The notes below the pieces were generated by a model. It saw nothing but the letters and a program-made list of their open reading frames with translations, was not told the origin of the DNA and made no database searches. A stretch of DNA of 64,000 nt. Origin: Candidatus Heimdallarchaeum endolithica. GTDB lineage: Archaea; Asgardarchaeota; Heimdallarchaeia; Heimdallarchaeales; Heimdallarchaeaceae. Location of the stretch: positions 1,696,001 to 1,760,000 of the forward strand of contig CP084167.1 in the NCBI GenBank assembly GCA_021513715.1, given 5' to 3'. The translations under genes and the position numbers were made by a program. Of the stretch, positions 7,369 through 56,550 are shown piece after piece; within the stretch, counting starts at the first letter, position 1, and each line of letters starts with the position of its first letter.

Positions 7369-7986
7369 GTGAGTAAAATGTTTGGAAACTTTATGAAATG
7401 GTTATTAGGAACTCAAAAATCAAGCCGAGACCATATAGTAAATCTTAAACTAACAATTCGTAGACTGGAAAGAGCTCAGAGAAAACTTGAAAGAGATGAA
7501 TCAAGAATTCAATTAAAGATGCGTACAGCAATTCAACGTGGTGATTTAGAAGGAGCCCGCCTTTATGCTACAGATATTGTTCGTTCTCGTAAATGGGTTT
7601 TAGGTTATCAGCGTTTAGTTTCTCGTATTAATGGTCTTATTTTTAAATTAGAACGAGCTGATTCTGCAGCTAATTTAGCTGCTGAAATGCATTCCATTGC
7701 AGGAGCTCTTCGACAAGCTAACGCTCAATTAAATGTTCCTGATTTAGATCATGTTATTCAAGACATGGAACGAAGTATTGATGGAATTGAGGATTCAACT
7801 GAAACAATTGAAGACGGAATTGATGATCTTCTTATTGCTGACACTGACCCTGCTGAAGTTGACAGGTTAATCGATCAAACTGCCACTGAAATGGGTGTCA
7901 GTGTAGGAGGAGAACTCCCTTCAGTAAGTGCTGTTGCTACAGACGATCTTGAGGAAGAGATTCAAAAATTAAGAAAAAAAGAGTAA
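7369..7986 (+). CDS. ESCRT-III, Vps2/24/46 class
   Basis: Snf7-fold helices, GDLEGARLYATDIVR and an amphipathic N-terminus; in an operon with Snf7 and Vps4. Confidence 0.9.
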   Translation: MSKMFGNFMKWLLGTQKSSRDHIVNLKLTIRRLERAQRKLERDESRIQLKMRTAIQRGDLEGARLYATDIVRSRKWVLGYQRLVSRINGLIFKLERADSAANLAAEMHSIAGALRQANAQLNVPDLDHVIQDMERSIDGIEDSTETIEDGIDDLLIADTDPAEVDRLIDQTATEMGVSVGGELPSVSAVATDDLEEEIQKLRKKE

Positions 7987-22936: not shown

Positions 22937-23094
22937 TTTTTAAATAAAAAGGAATGATGCTATTTGAGGACTAATGAGTATAGGTGAATTTGTTCCGAAC
23001 TTGCAGTAGCAACATTGTTTTACTTAGGAGTAGGAACAACACCTCAAAGAGTCTTTTTTTCTATGAGAAAAAATATGAGAAGGATGTGAAATAG
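22937..23094 (+). promoter_or_regulatory. proS leader: TATA, hairpin, Pro-sensing uORF and +1-frame coupling ORF
   Basis: TTTTTAAA at 22937-22944; stems TTTGAGG/CCTCAAA and TTGTTCC/GGAACAA; +1 frame open to TAG at 23092-23094, abutting the proS ATG. Confidence 0.75.
22974..23009 (+). CDS. Leader peptide MSIGEFVPNLQ
   Basis: ATG AGT ATA GGT GAA TTT GTT CCG AAC TTG CAG TAG; Pro codon at the same position as the cognate codon in the thrS and leuS leaders. Confidence 0.7.
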   Translation: MSIGEFVPNLQ

Positions 23095-24531
23095 ATGTCA
23101 GTTTTTACAAAGAAAAAGGATGAACAATTCATGGCATGGTATCTTGATGTCATTCGAAGAGCAGAAATTGTAGATACTCGAACAGGAGTCAAAGGTGCTA
23201 ATGTACTCATGAGCAATGGATATGAAATTTGGAAAAGGATGCAAAACATCTTGGATGAGAAATTCTATGGAACCAATCATAAAACTATGATATTCCCTTT
23301 ACTAATTCCTGAAAAATTCTTAATGATGGAAAAAGAACACTTTGCAGGATTCGTTCCAGAAGTAGCTCTCGTTACTCACGCAGGAGAAAAAAAATTAGAA
23401 GAAAATTATGCTTTAAGGCCAACATCTGAAACTATAATGTATCACTTGTATAGTCAATGGATCAGAAGTTACACAGATCTACCTTTAAAAGTAAATCAAT
23501 GGTGCAATATTATTAGAATTGACACAAAAGACACTAGACCTTTACTTCGTGACAGAGAATTCTACTGGACAGAGGCCCACACGTGCCATGAAACAGCAGA
23601 AGAAGCAGAAGAACAAGTGAAAGAATCAATGTGGATTTATTCAACATTCTTTGATGAATGTTGCTTACCTTATTTAGTACTCAAGCGTCCAAAACATGAC
23701 ACTTTTCCGGGAGCAGAATATAGCGTAGCTTATGATTGTCCTCTCCCAGATGGAAAAAGTCTCCAAATAGGAACTACACACAATCTCGCACAAGGATTTA
23801 GCAAAGTATTTAAAATCAAATTTCAGAAAGCTGATGGAAAACATGATTTTGCTTATCAAACTTGTTATGGATTATCCACGAGAGTTATAGCTGCCGTAAT
23901 TGGTGTTCATGGTGATGATCGAGGGTTAATTTTACCTCCATATCTAGCACCAACCCAAGTAGCTATTATTCCAATTATATTCAAAAGCAAAGAAGAAAAA
24001 GTGCAAAAGATTAGTAAAGAATTATATGAGAAAATCAAGTTGTCTGGTATAAGGGTAATATTAGATGACGGGCCTAAAACTAGTGGTTGGAAATTTAATG
24101 AATATGAGCTTCGAGGGGTACCAATAAGAATAGAAGTAGGCCCACGAGATGTAGAAAAAGGTTCTGTGGTTATTGTTCGTCGTGATACAAAGGAAAAGAT
24201 CGAAGTCAAAAATGAAGATATGATAGAAGAGATACAAAAATTGTTTAAAGCAATTACTATAGAATTAAAACAAAGAGCCAAGGCCTTATTGAAAAAATCT
24301 GTTTCAACACTAGAAACTTTAGAAGAAATTGAAGAGAAATTCAGCACAAAAAAACCTGGTTTCATCAGAACAAACTGGTGCGGAAATAAGAAATGTGCTG
24401 AATATGTAAAAGAAAACTTCCGAGCTAATATTCTTGGTACAAAGTATGGTGAAGTAGAGCAAGTTTTTGGAGATTGCCCTGTTTGCGGTGAAAAAGCTAA
24501 ACATGTTGTGTATCTTTCAAGAACTTACTAG
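23095..24531 (+). CDS. proS: Prolyl-tRNA synthetase, archaeal/eukaryotic type
   Basis: LRPTSET, REFYWTEAHT, QIGTTHNL and C-terminal zinc domain ending SRTY. Confidence 0.97.
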   Translation: MSVFTKKKDEQFMAWYLDVIRRAEIVDTRTGVKGANVLMSNGYEIWKRMQNILDEKFYGTNHKTMIFPLLIPEKFLMMEKEHFAGFVPEVALVTHAGEKKLEENYALRPTSETIMYHLYSQWIRSYTDLPLKVNQWCNIIRIDTKDTRPLLRDREFYWTEAHTCHETAEEAEEQVKESMWIYSTFFDECCLPYLVLKRPKHDTFPGAEYSVAYDCPLPDGKSLQIGTTHNLAQGFSKVFKIKFQKADGKHDFAYQTCYGLSTRVIAAVIGVHGDDRGLILPPYLAPTQVAIIPIIFKSKEEKVQKISKELYEKIKLSGIRVILDDGPKTSGWKFNEYELRGVPIRIEVGPRDVEKGSVVIVRRDTKEKIEVKNEDMIEEIQKLFKAITIELKQRAKALLKKSVSTLETLEEIEEKFSTKKPGFIRTNWCGNKKCAEYVKENFRANILGTKYGEVEQVFGDCPVCGEKAKHVVYLSRTY

Positions 24532-33339: not shown

Positions 33340-35019
33340 TTATTTTTTAATTTTTGTTTTCTCTTTATTTTTTGTTTTAAATAATTCAAACTTTTCTGGC
33401 CGTAATAACATATAAGTTAGAATTCCAATTACAATTATCAATGCTGCAATATAAAAAGTTACTTTGTATGAATAAGCATCAGAATTTCCTCCTGAACTTA
33501 TCCAGTTAGCTATTTTTTGTGAGAACAGAAAGGCAACAATTACAGAAAAAACAAAAGAAATACTAAAAGATGATATCTGAATACTTTTTGTTTTATTTAA
33601 CTTAAAATAAGAAATAAAGAATGTAGCTAACCACATACATACGCTTACAATAAAGAATCCTACATATATTGAAAGAGTCACTAGATTTACGCCAACTATA
33701 CTATCTGCAACTGGACCTGTGATTAACGTTCCTCCTAGTCCCCAAGATAAATAAAAAGCAGCATTATAGTAACCCATCATTTTTCCTCTTATTTCAAGTG
33801 GAATAATCTTTGTTATCATTGAATAAGAGATAGTCTGTATCCAGACCCTAGATAATCCTAAAAGAGCCATATAGACAAAGATAAGTACAATAGACGGCGC
33901 AAAAGGTAGAATTAATGTTCCAACAAACAAAAAACTAAATCCAATTAACAATAGTGTATGATCACTGAAATGTTTAGTTAAAAAACCAACAAGCAACCCA
34001 CCAATTATCATTGCAATACTACTTGTATTTCTTAATTGAGCAACAATTACATCAGAAGCAGCAAAAGTTGACGGTAATCTTATGTAAATACTTACCATTT
34101 GGTTAATGCTATTTCCTCCGATATTTACAATTCCAAGAACTACTAAAATCCATACAAATAATTGCCATTCCCAACATATTTTTTGAGGATTCTTTACAGT
34201 GTTATTTTCTCCTTTTTTCTTCATGCTTTCTTCATTTTTATTCAAAATCGTATTGTTAATTGATACTACATCACTATCTTCTAGTTCAGCATAAGATTCA
34301 GGTATAAGGAACAAGGCTATAATACTGAAAACCATTATCCCTGAAGAAATAAAAAACAGATTTCCATTGGAAAATCCTTCTCCACCTAAGTATAAAAATC
34401 CACTTGCAGTAACACCTAATATATTTCCTATTCCTCCAATAAATTGGAGTCTACCCATTATTTTTCCTCTTTCAGTTTCTTTTGTTAGATCTGCTATCAG
34501 TGCAGTCCACCCTAGGTTACTACTACTCCATCCAGCTTCAATGATTGTGAAACCTATTATTATTGTATAAGCTGCTGCGTGAAGACTCTTGTTTATGGCC
34601 ATGTTCTTGTGAATAAAATATACTACAATATAACCCACAGCAGCATATAATTCTCCAAAAATGATTAATAGTCTCCTTTTTTGGAATTTGTCAGAAATTC
34701 TTCCCCAAACTGCTGATTGAGTTAGAATGTTTGCGACCATCGGTAATGTTGCATAAAGTGTCATTTCTGTGTTAGTTACACCCAGATTCTCCTTCAAATA
34801 TATACTTAGAAAAAAATAGAAGATCCCTCTTCTAAACATAGCCATTATCTGAAATATAGACAAGCTTACAAAATGCTTATTTCTCAAAGGTTTCACTCCA
34901 AGGAATATTTTATTTTTTGTCGTTTTGCTTTTTTTTGTAACGAATAAATAGTTTGTGTTTTGCCTATTTTTGTAATAAAAAAAAATTAAGTTAAAGTAAA
35001 CTTTTTTATATCGGTGCAA
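33340..35019 (-). CDS. MFS transporter (true start probably near 34896)
   Basis: Many TM helices; motif A WGRISDKFQKRR. Confidence 0.88.
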   Translation of the reverse strand: MHRYKKVYFNLIFFYYKNRQNTNYLFVTKKSKTTKNKIFLGVKPLRNKHFVSLSIFQIMAMFRRGIFYFFLSIYLKENLGVTNTEMTLYATLPMVANILTQSAVWGRISDKFQKRRLLIIFGELYAAVGYIVVYFIHKNMAINKSLHAAAYTIIIGFTIIEAGWSSSNLGWTALIADLTKETERGKIMGRLQFIGGIGNILGVTASGFLYLGGEGFSNGNLFFISSGIMVFSIIALFLIPESYAELEDSDVVSINNTILNKNEESMKKKGENNTVKNPQKICWEWQLFVWILVVLGIVNIGGNSINQMVSIYIRLPSTFAASDVIVAQLRNTSSIAMIIGGLLVGFLTKHFSDHTLLLIGFSFLFVGTLILPFAPSIVLIFVYMALLGLSRVWIQTISYSMITKIIPLEIRGKMMGYYNAAFYLSWGLGGTLITGPVADSIVGVNLVTLSIYVGFFIVSVCMWLATFFISYFKLNKTKSIQISSFSISFVFSVIVAFLFSQKIANWISSGGNSDAYSYKVTFYIAALIIVIGILTYMLLRPEKFELFKTKNKEKTKIKK

Positions 35020-35144
35020 TTTTCATCTTTTGAGGACAATGAATCCTGGTGAATATGAAACAATACAGTAAAATGCTTTCTTTTGGTTTAGTAGTTTATC
35101 TTTGTCCTCTTGGGAAAAAATGTTTTAAGGTGGAAAGATGGTAG
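35002..35144 (+). promoter_or_regulatory. thrS leader: TATA, hairpin, Thr-sensing uORF and +1-frame coupling ORF
   Basis: TTTTTTATA at 35002-35010; stem GAGGACAA (35032-35039) with TTGTCCTC (35102-35109); +1 frame open to TAG at 35142-35144, overlapping the thrS start. Confidence 0.75.
35039..35071 (+). CDS. Leader peptide MNPGEYETIQ
   Basis: ATG AAT CCT GGT GAA TAT GAA ACA ATA CAG TAA; Thr codon at the conserved position. Confidence 0.7.
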   Translation: MNPGEYETIQ

Positions 35145-37063
35145 AAGTAAAAGTAAAATTACCTGATAACAGTGAGATCGCCATTGAAAAGGGTAAAACA
35201 ATATTGGATTTAGCCAATAAAATAAGCCCCAATTTAGCAAAAGCATCTTTAGCAGCAAAAATAGATGATAAATTAGTGGATCTTACTTACCCAATTGAAC
35301 AAGATTGTAAAATAGAATTAATTACAGCCAGATCAGATGAAGCTTTTCATATTCTAAACCATAGTGCAGCTCATGTATTAGCTAGTGCTGTCGTTGAATT
35401 GTTTCCTGAAGCGAAGCCAACTATTGGACCCTCTGTTGATGAGGGATTTTATTACGATTTCGAGGTAAAAAAGCCCTTTTCTCAAGAGGATTTGGAAAAA
35501 ATAGAAAAGAAAATGATAGAGATAATAGAAGAAGATACTCCGTTTATTAGAGAAGAAGTTCCAATTCAAGAAGCTATCAAATACTATGAAAAAGTTGAGA
35601 AGAATAAATTCAAAGTAGAGATATTGAAAGAGATGCCAGATGTTGACACCGTTTCTTTTTATTCCCACCGAAACGGTAAATTCAAAGATCTTTGTAGAGG
35701 TCCCCATATCCCTTCAACAAAGAAAATTAAAGCAGTAAAAGTGCTTAATGCTTCTTCTGCTTTTTGGAGAGGAGATGCAAAAAGAGAATCCCTTCAAAGA
35801 GTATATGGTATCGCTTTTACTGACGCTAAAAAGTTAAAAAAACACTTGAAAATGCTTGAAGAAGCAAAAAAACGTGACCATAGAATTTTGGGACCACAAC
35901 TTGATCTATTCGATACTGCAGATGAGTGGGGACCTGGAATGCCATTAATTTATCCAAAAGGAACAATCCTCTTAGAAGTTATCAAAGAGTTTTGGAAAAA
36001 AGAACATAAAAAAGCAGGATATAAAGTTGTACAAACTCCTCATCTATTCAAAGAGATTGTATGGAAAACAAGTGGGCATTTAGATTATTACCTTGAAAAC
36101 ATGTATCCAGTAGATGCTAGAGGTGAACGTTGGTATGTTAAACCTATGAATTGTCCAGGACATATGATGATTTACAATAGAAAGACTTATTCTTACAGAG
36201 AGTTACCTGAACGAATAGCAGAAATGGGTACTGTGTATAGATATGAACTTTCAGGAGTATTACATGGTTTATTCAGAATTCGTGGTTTCACCCAAGATGA
36301 TAGTCACATTTTCATGCTTCCAGAGCAACTAGAAGATGAGATAGTAAAAATTATAGAGATGGTAAATCACTTTTATTCAGTGTTTGGATTCAAAGAATGG
36401 GAATTTTTCATTAGTACTAGACCTGAAAAATCTATTGGAACAGATGAAGGATGGGAACATGCTACAAAATCTTTAATGAATGCTATTGAAAGAGTTGGAA
36501 TCAAATATAAAATTAAACAAGGAGATGGAGCTTTTTATGGTCCAAAAATTGATGTTGATGTTAAAGATGCAATAGGAAGACGTTGGCAACTAGCAACCAT
36601 ACAAGTAGACTTTAACTTGCCAGAAAGATTTGATATAAATTACATTGGTGAAGATGGTCAAAAGCACAGACCATTCATTATTCATCGTGTAATATATGGA
36701 GCACTTGAACGCTTTTTAGCAATATTGGTAGAACATTATGCTGGAAAATTGCCTATATGGTTGAGCCCTGTACAAGCGATTGTTATTCCAATTACTGATG
36801 AACATATAAATTATGCAAAAAAGGTTGTAGAAATACTCGACAAGGAAGGAATTAGAGCAGAAGCTGATCTTTCAGGAGAACGAATGGAGTACAAAATAAG
36901 GCAAGCTAATCTTCAGAAAATACCTTACATTATTAATGTTGGAGGAAAAGAAATAGAAAACAATACTATAGCTGTTCGTGATCGAACTAATAAAGTGAGA
37001 TTCGGCGTAAAAATTGAAGAATTTGTTAAAGAAGTTAAAGAAAAAATAACAAATTATGAATAA
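35138..37063 (+). CDS. thrS: Threonyl-tRNA synthetase, bacterial/eukaryotic type (TGS and N2 editing domains)
   Basis: HSAAH, DLCRGPH, RDHR, KPMNCPGH and GAFYGPKID motifs. Confidence 0.97.
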   Translation: MVEVKVKLPDNSEIAIEKGKTILDLANKISPNLAKASLAAKIDDKLVDLTYPIEQDCKIELITARSDEAFHILNHSAAHVLASAVVELFPEAKPTIGPSVDEGFYYDFEVKKPFSQEDLEKIEKKMIEIIEEDTPFIREEVPIQEAIKYYEKVEKNKFKVEILKEMPDVDTVSFYSHRNGKFKDLCRGPHIPSTKKIKAVKVLNASSAFWRGDAKRESLQRVYGIAFTDAKKLKKHLKMLEEAKKRDHRILGPQLDLFDTADEWGPGMPLIYPKGTILLEVIKEFWKKEHKKAGYKVVQTPHLFKEIVWKTSGHLDYYLENMYPVDARGERWYVKPMNCPGHMMIYNRKTYSYRELPERIAEMGTVYRYELSGVLHGLFRIRGFTQDDSHIFMLPEQLEDEIVKIIEMVNHFYSVFGFKEWEFFISTRPEKSIGTDEGWEHATKSLMNAIERVGIKYKIKQGDGAFYGPKIDVDVKDAIGRRWQLATIQVDFNLPERFDINYIGEDGQKHRPFIIHRVIYGALERFLAILVEHYAGKLPIWLSPVQAIVIPITDEHINYAKKVVEILDKEGIRAEADLSGERMEYKIRQANLQKIPYIINVGGKEIENNTIAVRDRTNKVRFGVKIEEFVKEVKEKITNYE

Positions 37064-53382: not shown

Positions 53383-56319
53383 TTAAAGGAGTAAAATAGC
53401 TGGTTTCATAGGTCTTGCTTTACGGGCTTTATTTTGTGGGTCAAAAACATCTTTTGTATCAGAAATGTAAGTTTCAACTGTTATTTCAGGGTATTTTTTA
53501 TTGATTATTTTTATATACCCTTGAATTGCATTCAATTGTTCGTCTGGAGTTAGCATTGAGATTCTAAAGATTGTTGGATCTTTCATCATTAATTTTGCTT
53601 CATCTGCGATATTCTTCATATATTTATTTAATGTCTCATGGTTTTTCACTAGAGACATTATTTTGCCTATATTGAAAGCTTCCTCAGCGAATGAATCTTT
53701 GGCCAATTTATATAACTCATTTTTCCATTGTGGAGCTATATATATGATCATTTTTTTAGGTTCAGATTTAACTAATTTCATAACCTGTTCTATATCTTTC
53801 ATCAAATTAGTCAAGAATTTAAGTTGTAATGCAAGTTGTGTGTCTTCTTCTGTTAAAATTATGTCTTCTATTTTTTGTAAAGAAACAAAACCTGTATTCC
53901 CATACCGTTCATATATCTCTTCACAAATGTGAGGGATTACTGGTGCCATCAGTATTATCATGTTTTCAACAGTCTCTTTTATTACACTTTGAACCTCTTT
54001 CTCATTCGAGTTTGAAGATAATTTCAAGTAATTTTCTAGTTCTCGGATATTATCAAAGAACCCTGATAATATATAGTCTCTTGGATTAAATCGTTCCATT
54101 GCATCAATTGCCAACTTCATGTTACGTTTTACAGAAGCTAGAACAATCTTAGATATAAACGAATATGATTGTGGGTCAATTTTTTCACTCTTTTCAACCA
54201 TTATTGCAAATTCCCAAAACTTACGCAATTTTTCTTTAGAATGGTTAACTTCCACTTCTCTCCAGTCAACTACAGACTCTTGTGTTGCTATAGAAGCTAA
54301 ATGTAGGCGAGTTAAGTCAACACTATACTTCTCTGGGATTTTAGCTATTGGAATTACGTTTCCTTTGCTTTTTCCCATTTTTTCTCCTTCTCTATTTAAC
54401 ATTTCATTCAAAGAGAACATCTGAGGCCAATATTTTTCTTGGAAAATAGCTACATGATGGAAAATAGTAAAGGACAAATGATTGGAGATATGTGCAATTG
54501 CTGTATGTCGTAAATCATTGGGATACCAATACTCAAATTCACTTTTCATAGCATTTATAGTATCAACAGAGATACTTGTTTCTTTAGATACTGTTTCAAC
54601 ATCGTGGTTAGAGAGAAATATATGATCGAATAATATTGGTTTTAATTGTTCTGGTTTTATTTTAGATTCTTTAATTGTCTTAATAATTGTATAAAATGCC
54701 ATGTAAATAACAGAATCACTTAGTGATTCTATGATCCAGCCTTTTCCCTTTGTTATAGGAAATTCTGTTCCTAGCCCTCTCTTTCTCACACATGGACGCT
54801 TATCTAACCAATTGAACACATTCTCAAATGCTTGACGATATTTTTCAGGAACTATTTTCATATTGTTTAATGCTTTAAATGCAAGTTCTTTCCATTTTTT
54901 ATTTCCATAATTTAAGAAATATTGGTCTTCAATCACCGCAGCTATTATTTTTCCACCACACCTACATTTTGCTTTTGTTGAAACCTCATAGACATTTGAT
55001 GCTAAATTCAGTTCTTTGAGCTTTTTCGCCACAGCAACTTTTGCCTCCTCAACTTTTAAGCTATTAAATTCTCCTGTGTTGGATTTCATCACTCCAGAGT
55101 AAAACTCTTCTTTATATATTGTCTGTGTAGCTTTCTCCAATTTTTCTATATCTTCTTGACTCTGAACACCCATCTTTTCATATATTTCTACTGCAGGAAA
55201 CTCACCATACCCATCTAATTTAATTAAAGAGATTGGGATAATACTTTTTAGTTTACTTTCGTCCAAGGAATATTTCTTTATTAATTCTTCATTTTTTTGC
55301 AAATCTACCAAAGCCGCATAATCATAAGGCGCATGTCCTGGAACACTATATACTACTCCAGTTGCATGATCTGTATCAACAAATGTTGCAGGATAAATTG
55401 GAATAACAACTCCAGTTAACGGCACTTCAACTTCTTGGTCAAATAATTCTCTTCCCTTAAATTCTCTAGTTATCTCAATTTTATGATGTTGATTCTTTAG
55501 TTTACTTACAGCTTCAGATGATACTATCCAATTTTCATCATCTATTTTAATCTCACAATATTTATTTTCAGGATTTATCCAAACATTTGTTGCTCCAAAG
55601 ATAGTTTCAGGTCTGAAGGTAGCAGCAACCAAAAATGTGTTTTTGTTTTTTAATTTGAACTTAATTCCAACGAATTCAGAAACTTCTACTTTTGTTTCAT
55701 CTCCTGCATAAATATCATCCTCTCCAACAGCATTTTTACAGTTTGTACACCACAAAATAGGATATTCTCCTTTTGTTATGTATCCTTTTTCGTTAAGAAT
55801 TTTGTATTGCCATTCAATAAATTTGTTATATTCTGGATCACCTGTAGTAAATTCACGTGTATCATCTATTGAAAATCCCATTCTCTTAAAGTCTTCCATT
55901 AATTTTCCTGAAAAATACATAGCTACGTTCATCGGCTCTACAAATGAGCCAACAATTTCTTCTACTTTTTTTTCATCGGATTCGTAGATAGACACATAAT
56001 CTCGGTATTTTTTCCATTCTTTTTCATCTTTTTCTTTTATTTTTGCGGATACAGATAAAACAGGTGTTCCTGTAATATGATAAGCCATTGGCCACATCAC
56101 ATTAAATCCCCGTTGCCTTTTATAACGTGTAAATAGATCTCCAAGATTATATGTTCTACAATGCCCTATATGAAGAGTTCCGCTTGCATAGGGATAAGGT
56201 ACAGTAACAAAATACTTGGGTTTGGAATGGTCAACTTTACCTACAAATATTTTCTTTTCATCCCATCGTTTTTGCCATTTTGTTTCAATTTTACGTATTC
56301 CTTCTAAAAAACTAGCCAT
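53383..56319 (-). CDS. leuS: Leucyl-tRNA synthetase, archaeal type
   Basis: HIGH, ATFRPET (CP1) and KMGKSKGN motifs. Confidence 0.97.
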   Translation of the reverse strand: MASFLEGIRKIETKWQKRWDEKKIFVGKVDHSKPKYFVTVPYPYASGTLHIGHCRTYNLGDLFTRYKRQRGFNVMWPMAYHITGTPVLSVSAKIKEKDEKEWKKYRDYVSIYESDEKKVEEIVGSFVEPMNVAMYFSGKLMEDFKRMGFSIDDTREFTTGDPEYNKFIEWQYKILNEKGYITKGEYPILWCTNCKNAVGEDDIYAGDETKVEVSEFVGIKFKLKNKNTFLVAATFRPETIFGATNVWINPENKYCEIKIDDENWIVSSEAVSKLKNQHHKIEITREFKGRELFDQEVEVPLTGVVIPIYPATFVDTDHATGVVYSVPGHAPYDYAALVDLQKNEELIKKYSLDESKLKSIIPISLIKLDGYGEFPAVEIYEKMGVQSQEDIEKLEKATQTIYKEEFYSGVMKSNTGEFNSLKVEEAKVAVAKKLKELNLASNVYEVSTKAKCRCGGKIIAAVIEDQYFLNYGNKKWKELAFKALNNMKIVPEKYRQAFENVFNWLDKRPCVRKRGLGTEFPITKGKGWIIESLSDSVIYMAFYTIIKTIKESKIKPEQLKPILFDHIFLSNHDVETVSKETSISVDTINAMKSEFEYWYPNDLRHTAIAHISNHLSFTIFHHVAIFQEKYWPQMFSLNEMLNREGEKMGKSKGNVIPIAKIPEKYSVDLTRLHLASIATQESVVDWREVEVNHSKEKLRKFWEFAIMVEKSEKIDPQSYSFISKIVLASVKRNMKLAIDAMERFNPRDYILSGFFDNIRELENYLKLSSNSNEKEVQSVIKETVENMIILMAPVIPHICEEIYERYGNTGFVSLQKIEDIILTEEDTQLALQLKFLTNLMKDIEQVMKLVKSEPKKMIIYIAPQWKNELYKLAKDSFAEEAFNIGKIMSLVKNHETLNKYMKNIADEAKLMMKDPTIFRISMLTPDEQLNAIQGYIKIINKKYPEITVETYISDTKDVFDPQNKARKARPMKPAILLL

Positions 56320-56550
56320 TTTTACACCTCAATTCTGGAATAAAGAGCTTTTCTTTTCTATTGTAAATTACAGTTGCAATAAAACATGGTTCCATTATAA
56401 ATTTACTGTAAAAAGATTCTTTTCTAAAAATTCGGGAAACCTTATATCCAGTAACTATGTTAATAGAATAATTGTTTTCCAAGAAGAACATAGTCACCTT
56501 TCATCTTCTGGTCTCCTAAAAACAAAAAGGAGATATTAGTTAAAAAATTT
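56312..56550 (-). promoter_or_regulatory. leuS leader: TATA, hairpins, Leu-sensing uORF and +1-frame coupling ORF
   Basis: TTTTTTAA near 56547-56540; stems GGAGACC/GGTTTCC and GGTGACTATGTT/AACATAGTTACT; +1 frame (track ORF 56312..56497) ends in a TAG just past the leuS ATG. Confidence 0.75.
56460..56504 (-). CDS. Leader peptide MKGDYVLLGKQLFY
   Basis: ATG AAA GGT GAC TAT GTT CTT CTT GGA AAA CAA TTA TTC TAT TAA; tandem Leu codons at the conserved position. Confidence 0.7.
   Translation of the reverse strand: MKGDYVLLGKQLFY

Follow-up and report, generated by a model that had tools for sequence, protein, structure and literature searches.

Frameshifting in which the ribosome acts as both sensor and effector, including cases where its movement in the new frame affects a downstream ORF, is a recognised class of regulation to which prfB, antizyme and the ermC leader belong (PMC5009743). 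In prfB, the gene of bacterial release factor 2 (RF2), a +1 frameshift takes place a few nucleotides downstream of an internal Shine-Dalgarno-like element, at a site where the E-site codon begins with U and the P-site codon can re-pair one base further on (CUU-U), and decoding in the A site depends on the gene product, such that low RF2 leads to more shifting and more shifting to more RF2. The E-site codon of E. coli prfB is UAU. The leader of thrS in the archaeon Candidatus Heimdallarchaeum endolithica, which we analyse here, shows a comparable arrangement, with UAU as the putative E-site codon, GAA-A as the putative slippery sequence and an A-site codon whose decoding would depend on the Thr-tRNA supplied by the encoded threonyl-tRNA synthetase (ThrRS). 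It differs from prfB in that its presumed sensor is not a stop codon but a sense codon that a charged tRNA decodes, in that the shift would occur in a separate upstream ORF (uORF) of ten codons whose +1 frame ends at the thrS start without forming a fusion protein, in that its internal GGUGA element stands at initiation spacing where that of prfB is compressed, and in that its host is an archaeon.

Other described systems share part of this design. The bacterial attenuators (thr, trp and his operons, and pheM, the pheST leader) likewise have a short leader ORF whose cognate codons report tRNA charging; they contain a run of such codons where the thrS leader has one, they rely on terminator and antiterminator hairpins that the thrS leader lacks, and they have no counterpart to its conserved open overlapping frame. 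In the ermC leader ORF, a frameshift takes the ribosome past the leader stop toward the main start and thereby switches the gene on (PMC5009743). The trigger there is a ribosome-bound antibiotic, and the shift opens a hairpin hiding the ribosome-binding site; the thrS leader would respond to an empty A site and is not predicted to form a hairpin of this kind. The ermC leader frameshift is, moreover, of the -1 type. The T-box riboswitches of aminoacyl-tRNA synthetase genes in Bacillota also place one cis element before each synthetase gene, sense tRNA charging and owe their specificity to a single cognate codon, but they are large structured RNAs to which tRNA binds directly, with no ribosome involved, and the thrS leaders show neither a match to the T-box family (RF00230) nor a conserved structure. 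Lastly, +1 frameshifting in Ty1 and at hungry codons involves P-site slippage brought about by slow decoding of the next codon when its tRNA is limiting, as we propose for thrS; in Ty1, a rare tRNA sets the ratio and the outcome is a fusion protein, and Ty1 is not known as a homeostatic sensor for a synthetase. To our knowledge, nothing is known of how archaea match aminoacyl-tRNA synthetase levels to demand, there being no T-boxes and no described leaders. In full-text literature searches we found neither frameshift-based control of synthetase genes nor recoding in Heimdallarchaeota described; a 2021 review on recoding in archaea contains nothing on such leaders, and the H. endolithica genome paper (PMC8813620) does not mention frameshifting.

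The thrS gene and its leader

The window, that is the whole stretch of 64,000 nucleotides analysed here, carries thrS at positions 35138-37063 (+). The gene encodes a threonine--tRNA ligase of 641 amino acids with TGS, SAD, class II core and anticodon-binding domains, which scores 687 bits against the ThrRS model TIGR00418 (cut-off 384) and is 42-49% identical to bacterial ThrRS (Paenibacillus, Rhodobacteraceae and similar). As judged from these similarities, the product is of bacterial and not archaeal type. Its score against a second ThrRS model, NF003068, is just 221 bits, which is under the cut-off of that model. No second ThrRS was found among the class IIa genes of the genome, and the nearest public ThrRS is that of Ca. 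Heimdallarchaeum aukensis (96% amino-acid identity). The gene is flanked by a divergent MFS transporter gene upstream and a convergent M20 peptidase gene downstream, and the following features could be delineated in its leader:

35003..35011 (+), TATA-like box (a T-run, then ATAT) from the sequence; in orthologues an equivalent box precedes the uORF ATG by about 27 nt
35032..35039 (+), GAGGACAA, conserved 5' motif and 5' strand of a possible helix P1
35039..35071 (+), frame-0 uORF of ten codons (MNPGEYETIQ, then stop) with an invariant ATG and a single Thr codon, ACA
35048..35052 (+), internal GGUGA resembling a Shine-Dalgarno sequence; it is complementary to the 3' tail of 16S rRNA and precedes the P-site codon by 4 nt
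35054..35062 (+), proposed shift site, with E-site UAU (35054-56), P-site GAA (35057-59) and A-site ACA (35060-62); GAAACA is invariant
35061..35144 (+), +1 frame of 27 sense codons, then TAG (35142-35144) overlapping the thrS start
35077..35089 (+), T-rich tract (T3-C-T4-GG-T3) just past the uORF stop, not significantly enriched
35102..35109 (+), TTGTCCTC, 3' strand of the possible helix P1
35127..35133 (+), thrS Shine-Dalgarno sequence AAGGTGG (GGTGAT in most orthologues), from the sequence and the alignment

The uORF ends at the TAA at 35069-35071. The initial annotation had described the uORF at 35039-35071, the ACA codon preceded by GGTGA, TAT and GAA, the +1 frame open to a TAG just beyond the thrS ATG, and the exact complementarity between GAGGACAA and TTGTCCTC, and all of these agree with the sequence in position and in letters. 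Counted from the A of the thrS ATG, the +1 stop begins 4 nt further on, and the +1 frame and thrS are read in different frames. With the distance that is usual between an archaeal TATA box and the start of transcription, the transcript of the leader is predicted to begin in or just before TTGAGGACA, which would make the uORF AUG the first AUG of the transcript. As a Shine-Dalgarno or initiator region, the segment GAGGACAA may additionally help translation of the uORF to start.

Conservation of the uORF and of the open +1 frame

For comparison, we collected 170 nt of sequence upstream of thrS in each of 24 other genomes with this thrS type, giving 25 leaders inclusive of that in the window. The alignment comprises 23 distinct leaders, whose segments between the ACA codon and the thrS start fall into 10 clusters at 75% identity. 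An ATG-started uORF of 8-12 codons containing GGTGA(A/C), a U-R-N codon and GAA ACA is present in all 25 leaders, and among the 23 distinct ones the ATG, the GGTGA, the T that follows it and the GAAACA are invariant. Differences in length between the ATG and the GGT amount to whole codons only in all 23, and the frame-0 stop of the orthologous leaders follows 1-3 codons past the ACA. The initial annotation had made its threonine-sensing reading contingent on an ACN codon at this position in orthologues; we find ACA at the same position in 25 out of 25 leaders, and the reading withstands this comparison.

Of the three frames downstream of the ACA codon, only the +1 frame stays open. In every one of the 25 leaders it is free of stops between the ACA and a point -14 to +26 nt from the thrS start, and the -1 frame closes early. 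Summed over the 10 clusters, which are less than 75% identical to one another, there are 34 stops in frame 0, none in the +1 frame and 34 in the -1 frame. An open +1 frame of such length is not rare in the single leader of the window (P = 0.09 by shuffling), and shuffling of the segments gives P values of 0.04-0.21 per cluster; these sum to a log10 P of -9.7, which is overstated because the thrS leaders share ancestry. The segments between ACA and the start codon have nevertheless diverged far enough for stops to have piled up had selection not kept them out. The peptides encoded by the +1 frame are not conserved between clusters, which indicates that selection acts on the openness of the frame, that is on the passage of ribosomes, and not on a protein. 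Taken at the level of sequence comparison, these observations give strong support to the initial annotation in its reading of the region as a Thr-sensing frameshift leader.

The GGUGA element and the geometry of the proposed shift site

The Gly codon of the uORF is GGT in all 25 thrS leaders and in all 15 proS leaders (see below), against a genome-wide usage in genes in which GGT accounts for 33% and GGA for 52% of Gly codons, and the codon that follows alternates between Glu and Asp yet retains GA. Such a pattern indicates that GGUGA is conserved as an RNA element complementary to the 16S tail and not as a Gly-Glu dipeptide. The 3' end of the host 16S rRNA reads ...GGAUCACCUCCU, and therefore (A)GGUGA can pair with it. 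Upstream of long ORFs genome-wide, the spacing between GGTGA and the start codon is 4 nt in 60 cases, 5 nt in 92 and 6 nt in 46; the 4 nt that separate GGUGA from GAA in the cassette are thus a normal initiation distance, and the strained short spacing of prfB is not seen. A +1 slip would shift the ribosome to the modal 5-nt register of GGUGA. With the anti-Shine-Dalgarno sequence paired to GGUGA 4 nt before GAA, the P site falls naturally on GAA and the A site on ACA. We infer that GGUGA acts as a holding or positioning site, contributing at most a mild forward bias.

In every cassette, a +1 slip would leave the P-site tRNA able to re-pair at two of its three positions (GAA to AAA, GUU or CUU to UUC, AAU to AUU). 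This follows from the codons and, where tRNA genes were found (Val-GAC, Leu-GAG, Asn-GUU), from their anticodons, with that of tRNA-Glu assumed; a tRNA-Glu gene was not recovered in the search of the genome for tRNA genes. The ACA codon is read by a single-copy tRNA-Thr(UGU). The same genome, searched as a whole with ARAGORN in its intron mode, also yielded two calls each of tRNA-Pyl(CUA) and tRNA-SeC(UCA) and one tRNA with a UUA anticodon, which are likely false calls of this permissive mode.

Parallel leaders of other synthetase genes

The initial annotation had noted that the 5' end of the thrS leader is nearly identical to that of the proS leader and had suggested a common ancestry of the two. 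We confirm the shared motif (TTTGAGGACTAATGA at 22963, where TTTGAGGAC(T)AATGA recurs) and find that the kinship is real and reaches further, to the leaders of leuS, ileS and pheS in the same genome, each with its own cognate codon:

22963..23097 (+), proS leader, uORF MSIGEFVPNLQ, then stop, with GUU-CCG; +1 frame ending at a TAG that abuts the proS ATG
56312..56520 (-), leuS leader, uORF MKGDYVLLGKQLFY, then stop, with GUU-CUU; +1 frame of 57 codons, whose end lies 5 nt inside leuS
genome about 1827442-1827544 (-) (L119:2443-2545), ileS leader, uORF MDREIH, then stop, with GAA-AUU; +1 frame of 27 codons whose TGA abuts the main start
genome about 1562335-1562468 (+) (L120:236-369), pheS (alpha) leader, uORF MPWNFDSAIMET, then stop, with AAU-UUC; +1 frame of 30 codons with an ATGA overlap

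In each of the five leaders the A-site codon is cognate to the downstream gene, and the +1 frames, open over 27-57 codons, stop at -3 to +5 of the main ATG. The proS leader is retained over a wider range, since a Pro codon (CCG or CCA, after GUU or CUU) together with an open +1 frame is kept in all 15 proS leaders, which come from four families. The cassettes of ileS and pheS are minimal and lack GGTGA. No cassette was seen by eye upstream of the putative valS, metS and cysS genes, of the three other class IIa genes or of the two class IIb genes of this genome, these identities resting on Pfam family and length only.

The parallel leaders bear on an explanation that dispenses with frameshifting, in which the +1 frame is an ordinary small ORF that begins at the GTG within GGTGA (or, in some leaders, at the ATG of GAATATG) and is coupled to thrS, and the frame-0 uORF merely competes with it. 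A +1-frame GTG, a potential start in principle, is indeed found within every thrS, proS and leuS cassette, with a GAGG located 10 nt upstream at an acceptable aligned spacing, and 15 of the 25 thrS leaders have a +1-frame ATG as well. The +1-frame ATG is absent from the remaining 10, however, and in the leaders of ileS and pheS the +1 frame is open yet offers no potential start (ATG, GTG or TTG) ahead of the sensor codon, which leaves a shift as the only way to enter that frame. A small ORF of this kind is also at odds with the in-frame ATG of the uORF, and would give no reason for a cognate codon in frame 0 of all five leaders, nor for insertions of whole codons between the ATG and the GGT; its products would be unconserved peptides of 27 to 57 codons, and ribosomes stalled in frame 0 would block the GTG start, giving regulation of the wrong sign. 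We therefore regard this explanation as quite unlikely, though less so for thrS taken by itself, and continue to read the +1 frame as one that is entered by shifting.

RNA structure and termination signals

Searches of the leader against Rfam found no relevant match at the gathering score or at E-values of up to 10, the T-box (RF00230) included, and RNAalifold predicted no consensus base pairs (0) for the thrS leaders. The fold of the window leader is no more stable than those of shuffled sequences (z = -0.1). Two helices, P1 and P2, could be named, for which 80% of the cells are paired with a covariation no better than that of shuffles. Helix P1 by itself (GAGGAC/GUCCUC) has 84% of its cells paired, with one compensatory change (L011) and one further double change; both of its strands are missing together in three leaders that retain the cassette and the open frame, and the predicted start of the transcript may lie within its 5' strand. 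Elsewhere in the window, positions 7773-7847 (+) give a borderline Rfam match to SNORD36 (C/D-box; 30.7 bits against a gathering score of 30, E = 0.7), which may represent an archaeal C/D-box sRNA or a chance similarity.

These results weigh on the idea that the leader is a structured RNA which binds uncharged tRNA-Thr, in the manner of a T-box with ACA as the specifier, or ThrRS itself, through an anticodon-arm mimic as in E. coli thrS. Such an RNA would account for a cognate codon in the conserved leader of a synthetase gene, and CUGGUGA is readable as an anticodon-like loop with GGU. The same GGU element is present in the proS and leuS leaders, so that it is not specific to Thr, and we dropped the anticodon-arm mimic on account of the GGUGA that these leaders share. 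The failure to match Rfam even at such permissive E-values and the want of a consensus structure or of excess stability argue against a structured RNA, which would also leave the frame pattern unexplained, and we consider this idea very improbable.

As for termination, a run of T5-T7 is located 2-3 nt past the uORF stop in 6 of 12 lineages, being neither universal nor enriched, for which reason we rejected the T-run as a terminator; a scan of the leader for bacterial-type (hairpin) terminators found none. The T-rich tract at 35077..35089 is possibly an archaeal termination signal. In the predicted folds of 12 leaders, the thrS Shine-Dalgarno sequence and AUG are not consistently paired, and the unmasking of a hidden ribosome-binding site is therefore not supported; nor do these folds give a reason for thrS to be silent when no shift occurs, which counts against a frameshift switch.

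A plain stalling attenuator has also to be considered, in which a ribosome stalled at ACA alters the folding of the RNA or its own distance from the polymerase and so blocks termination at a T-tract, the +1 frame being irrelevant. The short leader ORF with its cognate codon, reminiscent of bacterial leader-peptide attenuators, the T5-T7 run present past the uORF stop in half of the 12 lineages, and a helix P1 that encloses the uORF in most predicted folds are all in keeping with such a device. It would, however, offer no account of the absence of stops from the +1 frame alone (0 against 34 and 34), or of the openness of the +1 frame in the proS, leuS, ileS and pheS leaders. The alternative hairpins on which it would draw are not found (0 consensus pairs, z of -0.1, no hairpin terminator), and it would have to work with a single sensor codon and with a T-run that is not a general feature. 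Stalling alone is thus an unlikely explanation, and a shift of the ribosome into the +1 frame accords better with the frame pattern that stalling leaves unexplained.

Distribution of the cassette

A pattern describing the thrS cassette matches 27 of the 30 genomes in the family to which the window belongs, in addition to the genome of the window itself; the three family genomes without a match are 72-84% complete. Among 52 genomes from the other six families of the class, the pattern has no match. Three genomes (G216, G220 and G262) of another family of the phylum do possess the thrS cassette with an open +1 frame, upstream of a thrS of the same type (61-64% identity), and the sequences raise the prospect that gene and leader may have moved together between families. 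In these three leaders, the GAGGAC and GUCCUC motifs are absent while the cassette and the open frame are kept, which identifies the latter two as the core of the element and helix P1 as an accessory and dispensable part. The leader is not universal within the class for proS either, since at the proS loci of family f7 (L097, L100-L109) the gene lies directly behind another gene and has no leader cassette.

With the pattern reversed as a control, there were 7 matches in 400 genomes. The remaining matches that we examined outside the family of the window are coincidences, for example MDEGEWET within a protein of 200 amino acids, and four extra matches to the Thr cassette in the genome of the window were rejected as they have no gene downstream. 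We also note that ATG-GAx-GAG-GGTGAATGGGAAACA, encountered in several genomes of another family (L111-L114), encodes the N-terminus M[DEK]EGEWETPLGN of a conserved protein of about 200 amino acids; matches to this protein are a caution for searches that rely on the cassette pattern only.

A proposed mechanism

We judge it probable, on the comparative evidence given above, that the thrS leader is a sensor of tRNA charging that operates by programmed +1 frameshifting at a hungry codon. The ribosome would start at the 5'-proximal AUG of the uORF and, six codons on, would have GAA in its P site and face ACA in its A site, with the 16S tail paired to the GGUGA 4 nt upstream. When Thr-tRNA(UGU) is plentiful, ACA would be read and translation would terminate at the third codon beyond it, at a distance of about 70 nt from thrS. 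A shortage of charged tRNA-Thr would leave the A site empty, and peptidyl-tRNA-Glu would slip from GAA to AAA; the slipped ribosome would then cross the whole leader in the +1 frame and end where a +1 stop codon overlaps the start of thrS. That the uORF is translated, that the ribosome slips, that slipping responds to tRNA charging and that expression rises as a result are all parts of a model derived from the arrangement of the leader.

Two routes could lead from here to a higher synthesis of ThrRS, and neither is favoured. The first is termination and reinitiation at the overlapping stop and start. Archaeal coupling by termination-reinitiation needs overlaps or very short distances (PMC6728339, PMC10666635), for which the frame-0 stop, being about 70 nt away from thrS, is too far. 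The hallmark of such coupling, an upstream stop that overlaps or abuts the start, is present in the +1 frame, whose stop comes 4 nt after the thrS ATG; that the two codons are so near each other does not, however, exceed the genome background (P about 0.04-0.06), and because such closeness is common at gene starts of this AT-rich genome it speaks only weakly for coupling. In the second route, the translating ribosome would shield the nascent U-rich leader from factor-dependent or U-tract termination, in line with the anti-polarity by which a ribosome behind the polymerase guards against these kinds of termination (PMC13681488).

Implications

From its sequence and that of its orthologues, the thrS leader is best described as a putative sense-codon, tRNA-charging +1 frameshift sensor in a uORF, and as one of at least five in this genome. 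The evidence tips, by a modest amount, toward the broader view that Heimdall-group Asgard archaea, and perhaps other archaea, possess a modular, ribosome-based counterpart of the T-box, in which a uORF combines an internal pairing site for the anti-Shine-Dalgarno sequence, a slippery P-site codon and a single cognate codon that is exchangeable (Thr, Pro, Leu, Ile and Phe here), and the state of tRNA charging would act through a +1 frameshift to turn on the matching synthetase. As specificity would be set by one codon, the proposal is testable by codon swaps, and the cassette would make an attractive programmable sensor of amino acids.

If true, no earlier cis-acting control system of aminoacyl-tRNA synthetases would be known from archaea, and hungry-codon frameshifting would for the first time be seen to serve in nature as a homeostatic sensor. 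It would add to RF2 and antizyme a third natural +1 frameshift of the sensor type, one that reads tRNA charging. In eukaryotes, sensing of tRNA charging by means of uORFs is the rule (GCN4/ATF4). Since the cassette occurs in the archaeal group closest to eukaryotes, it would bear on the evolution of uORF-based control by tRNA charging.
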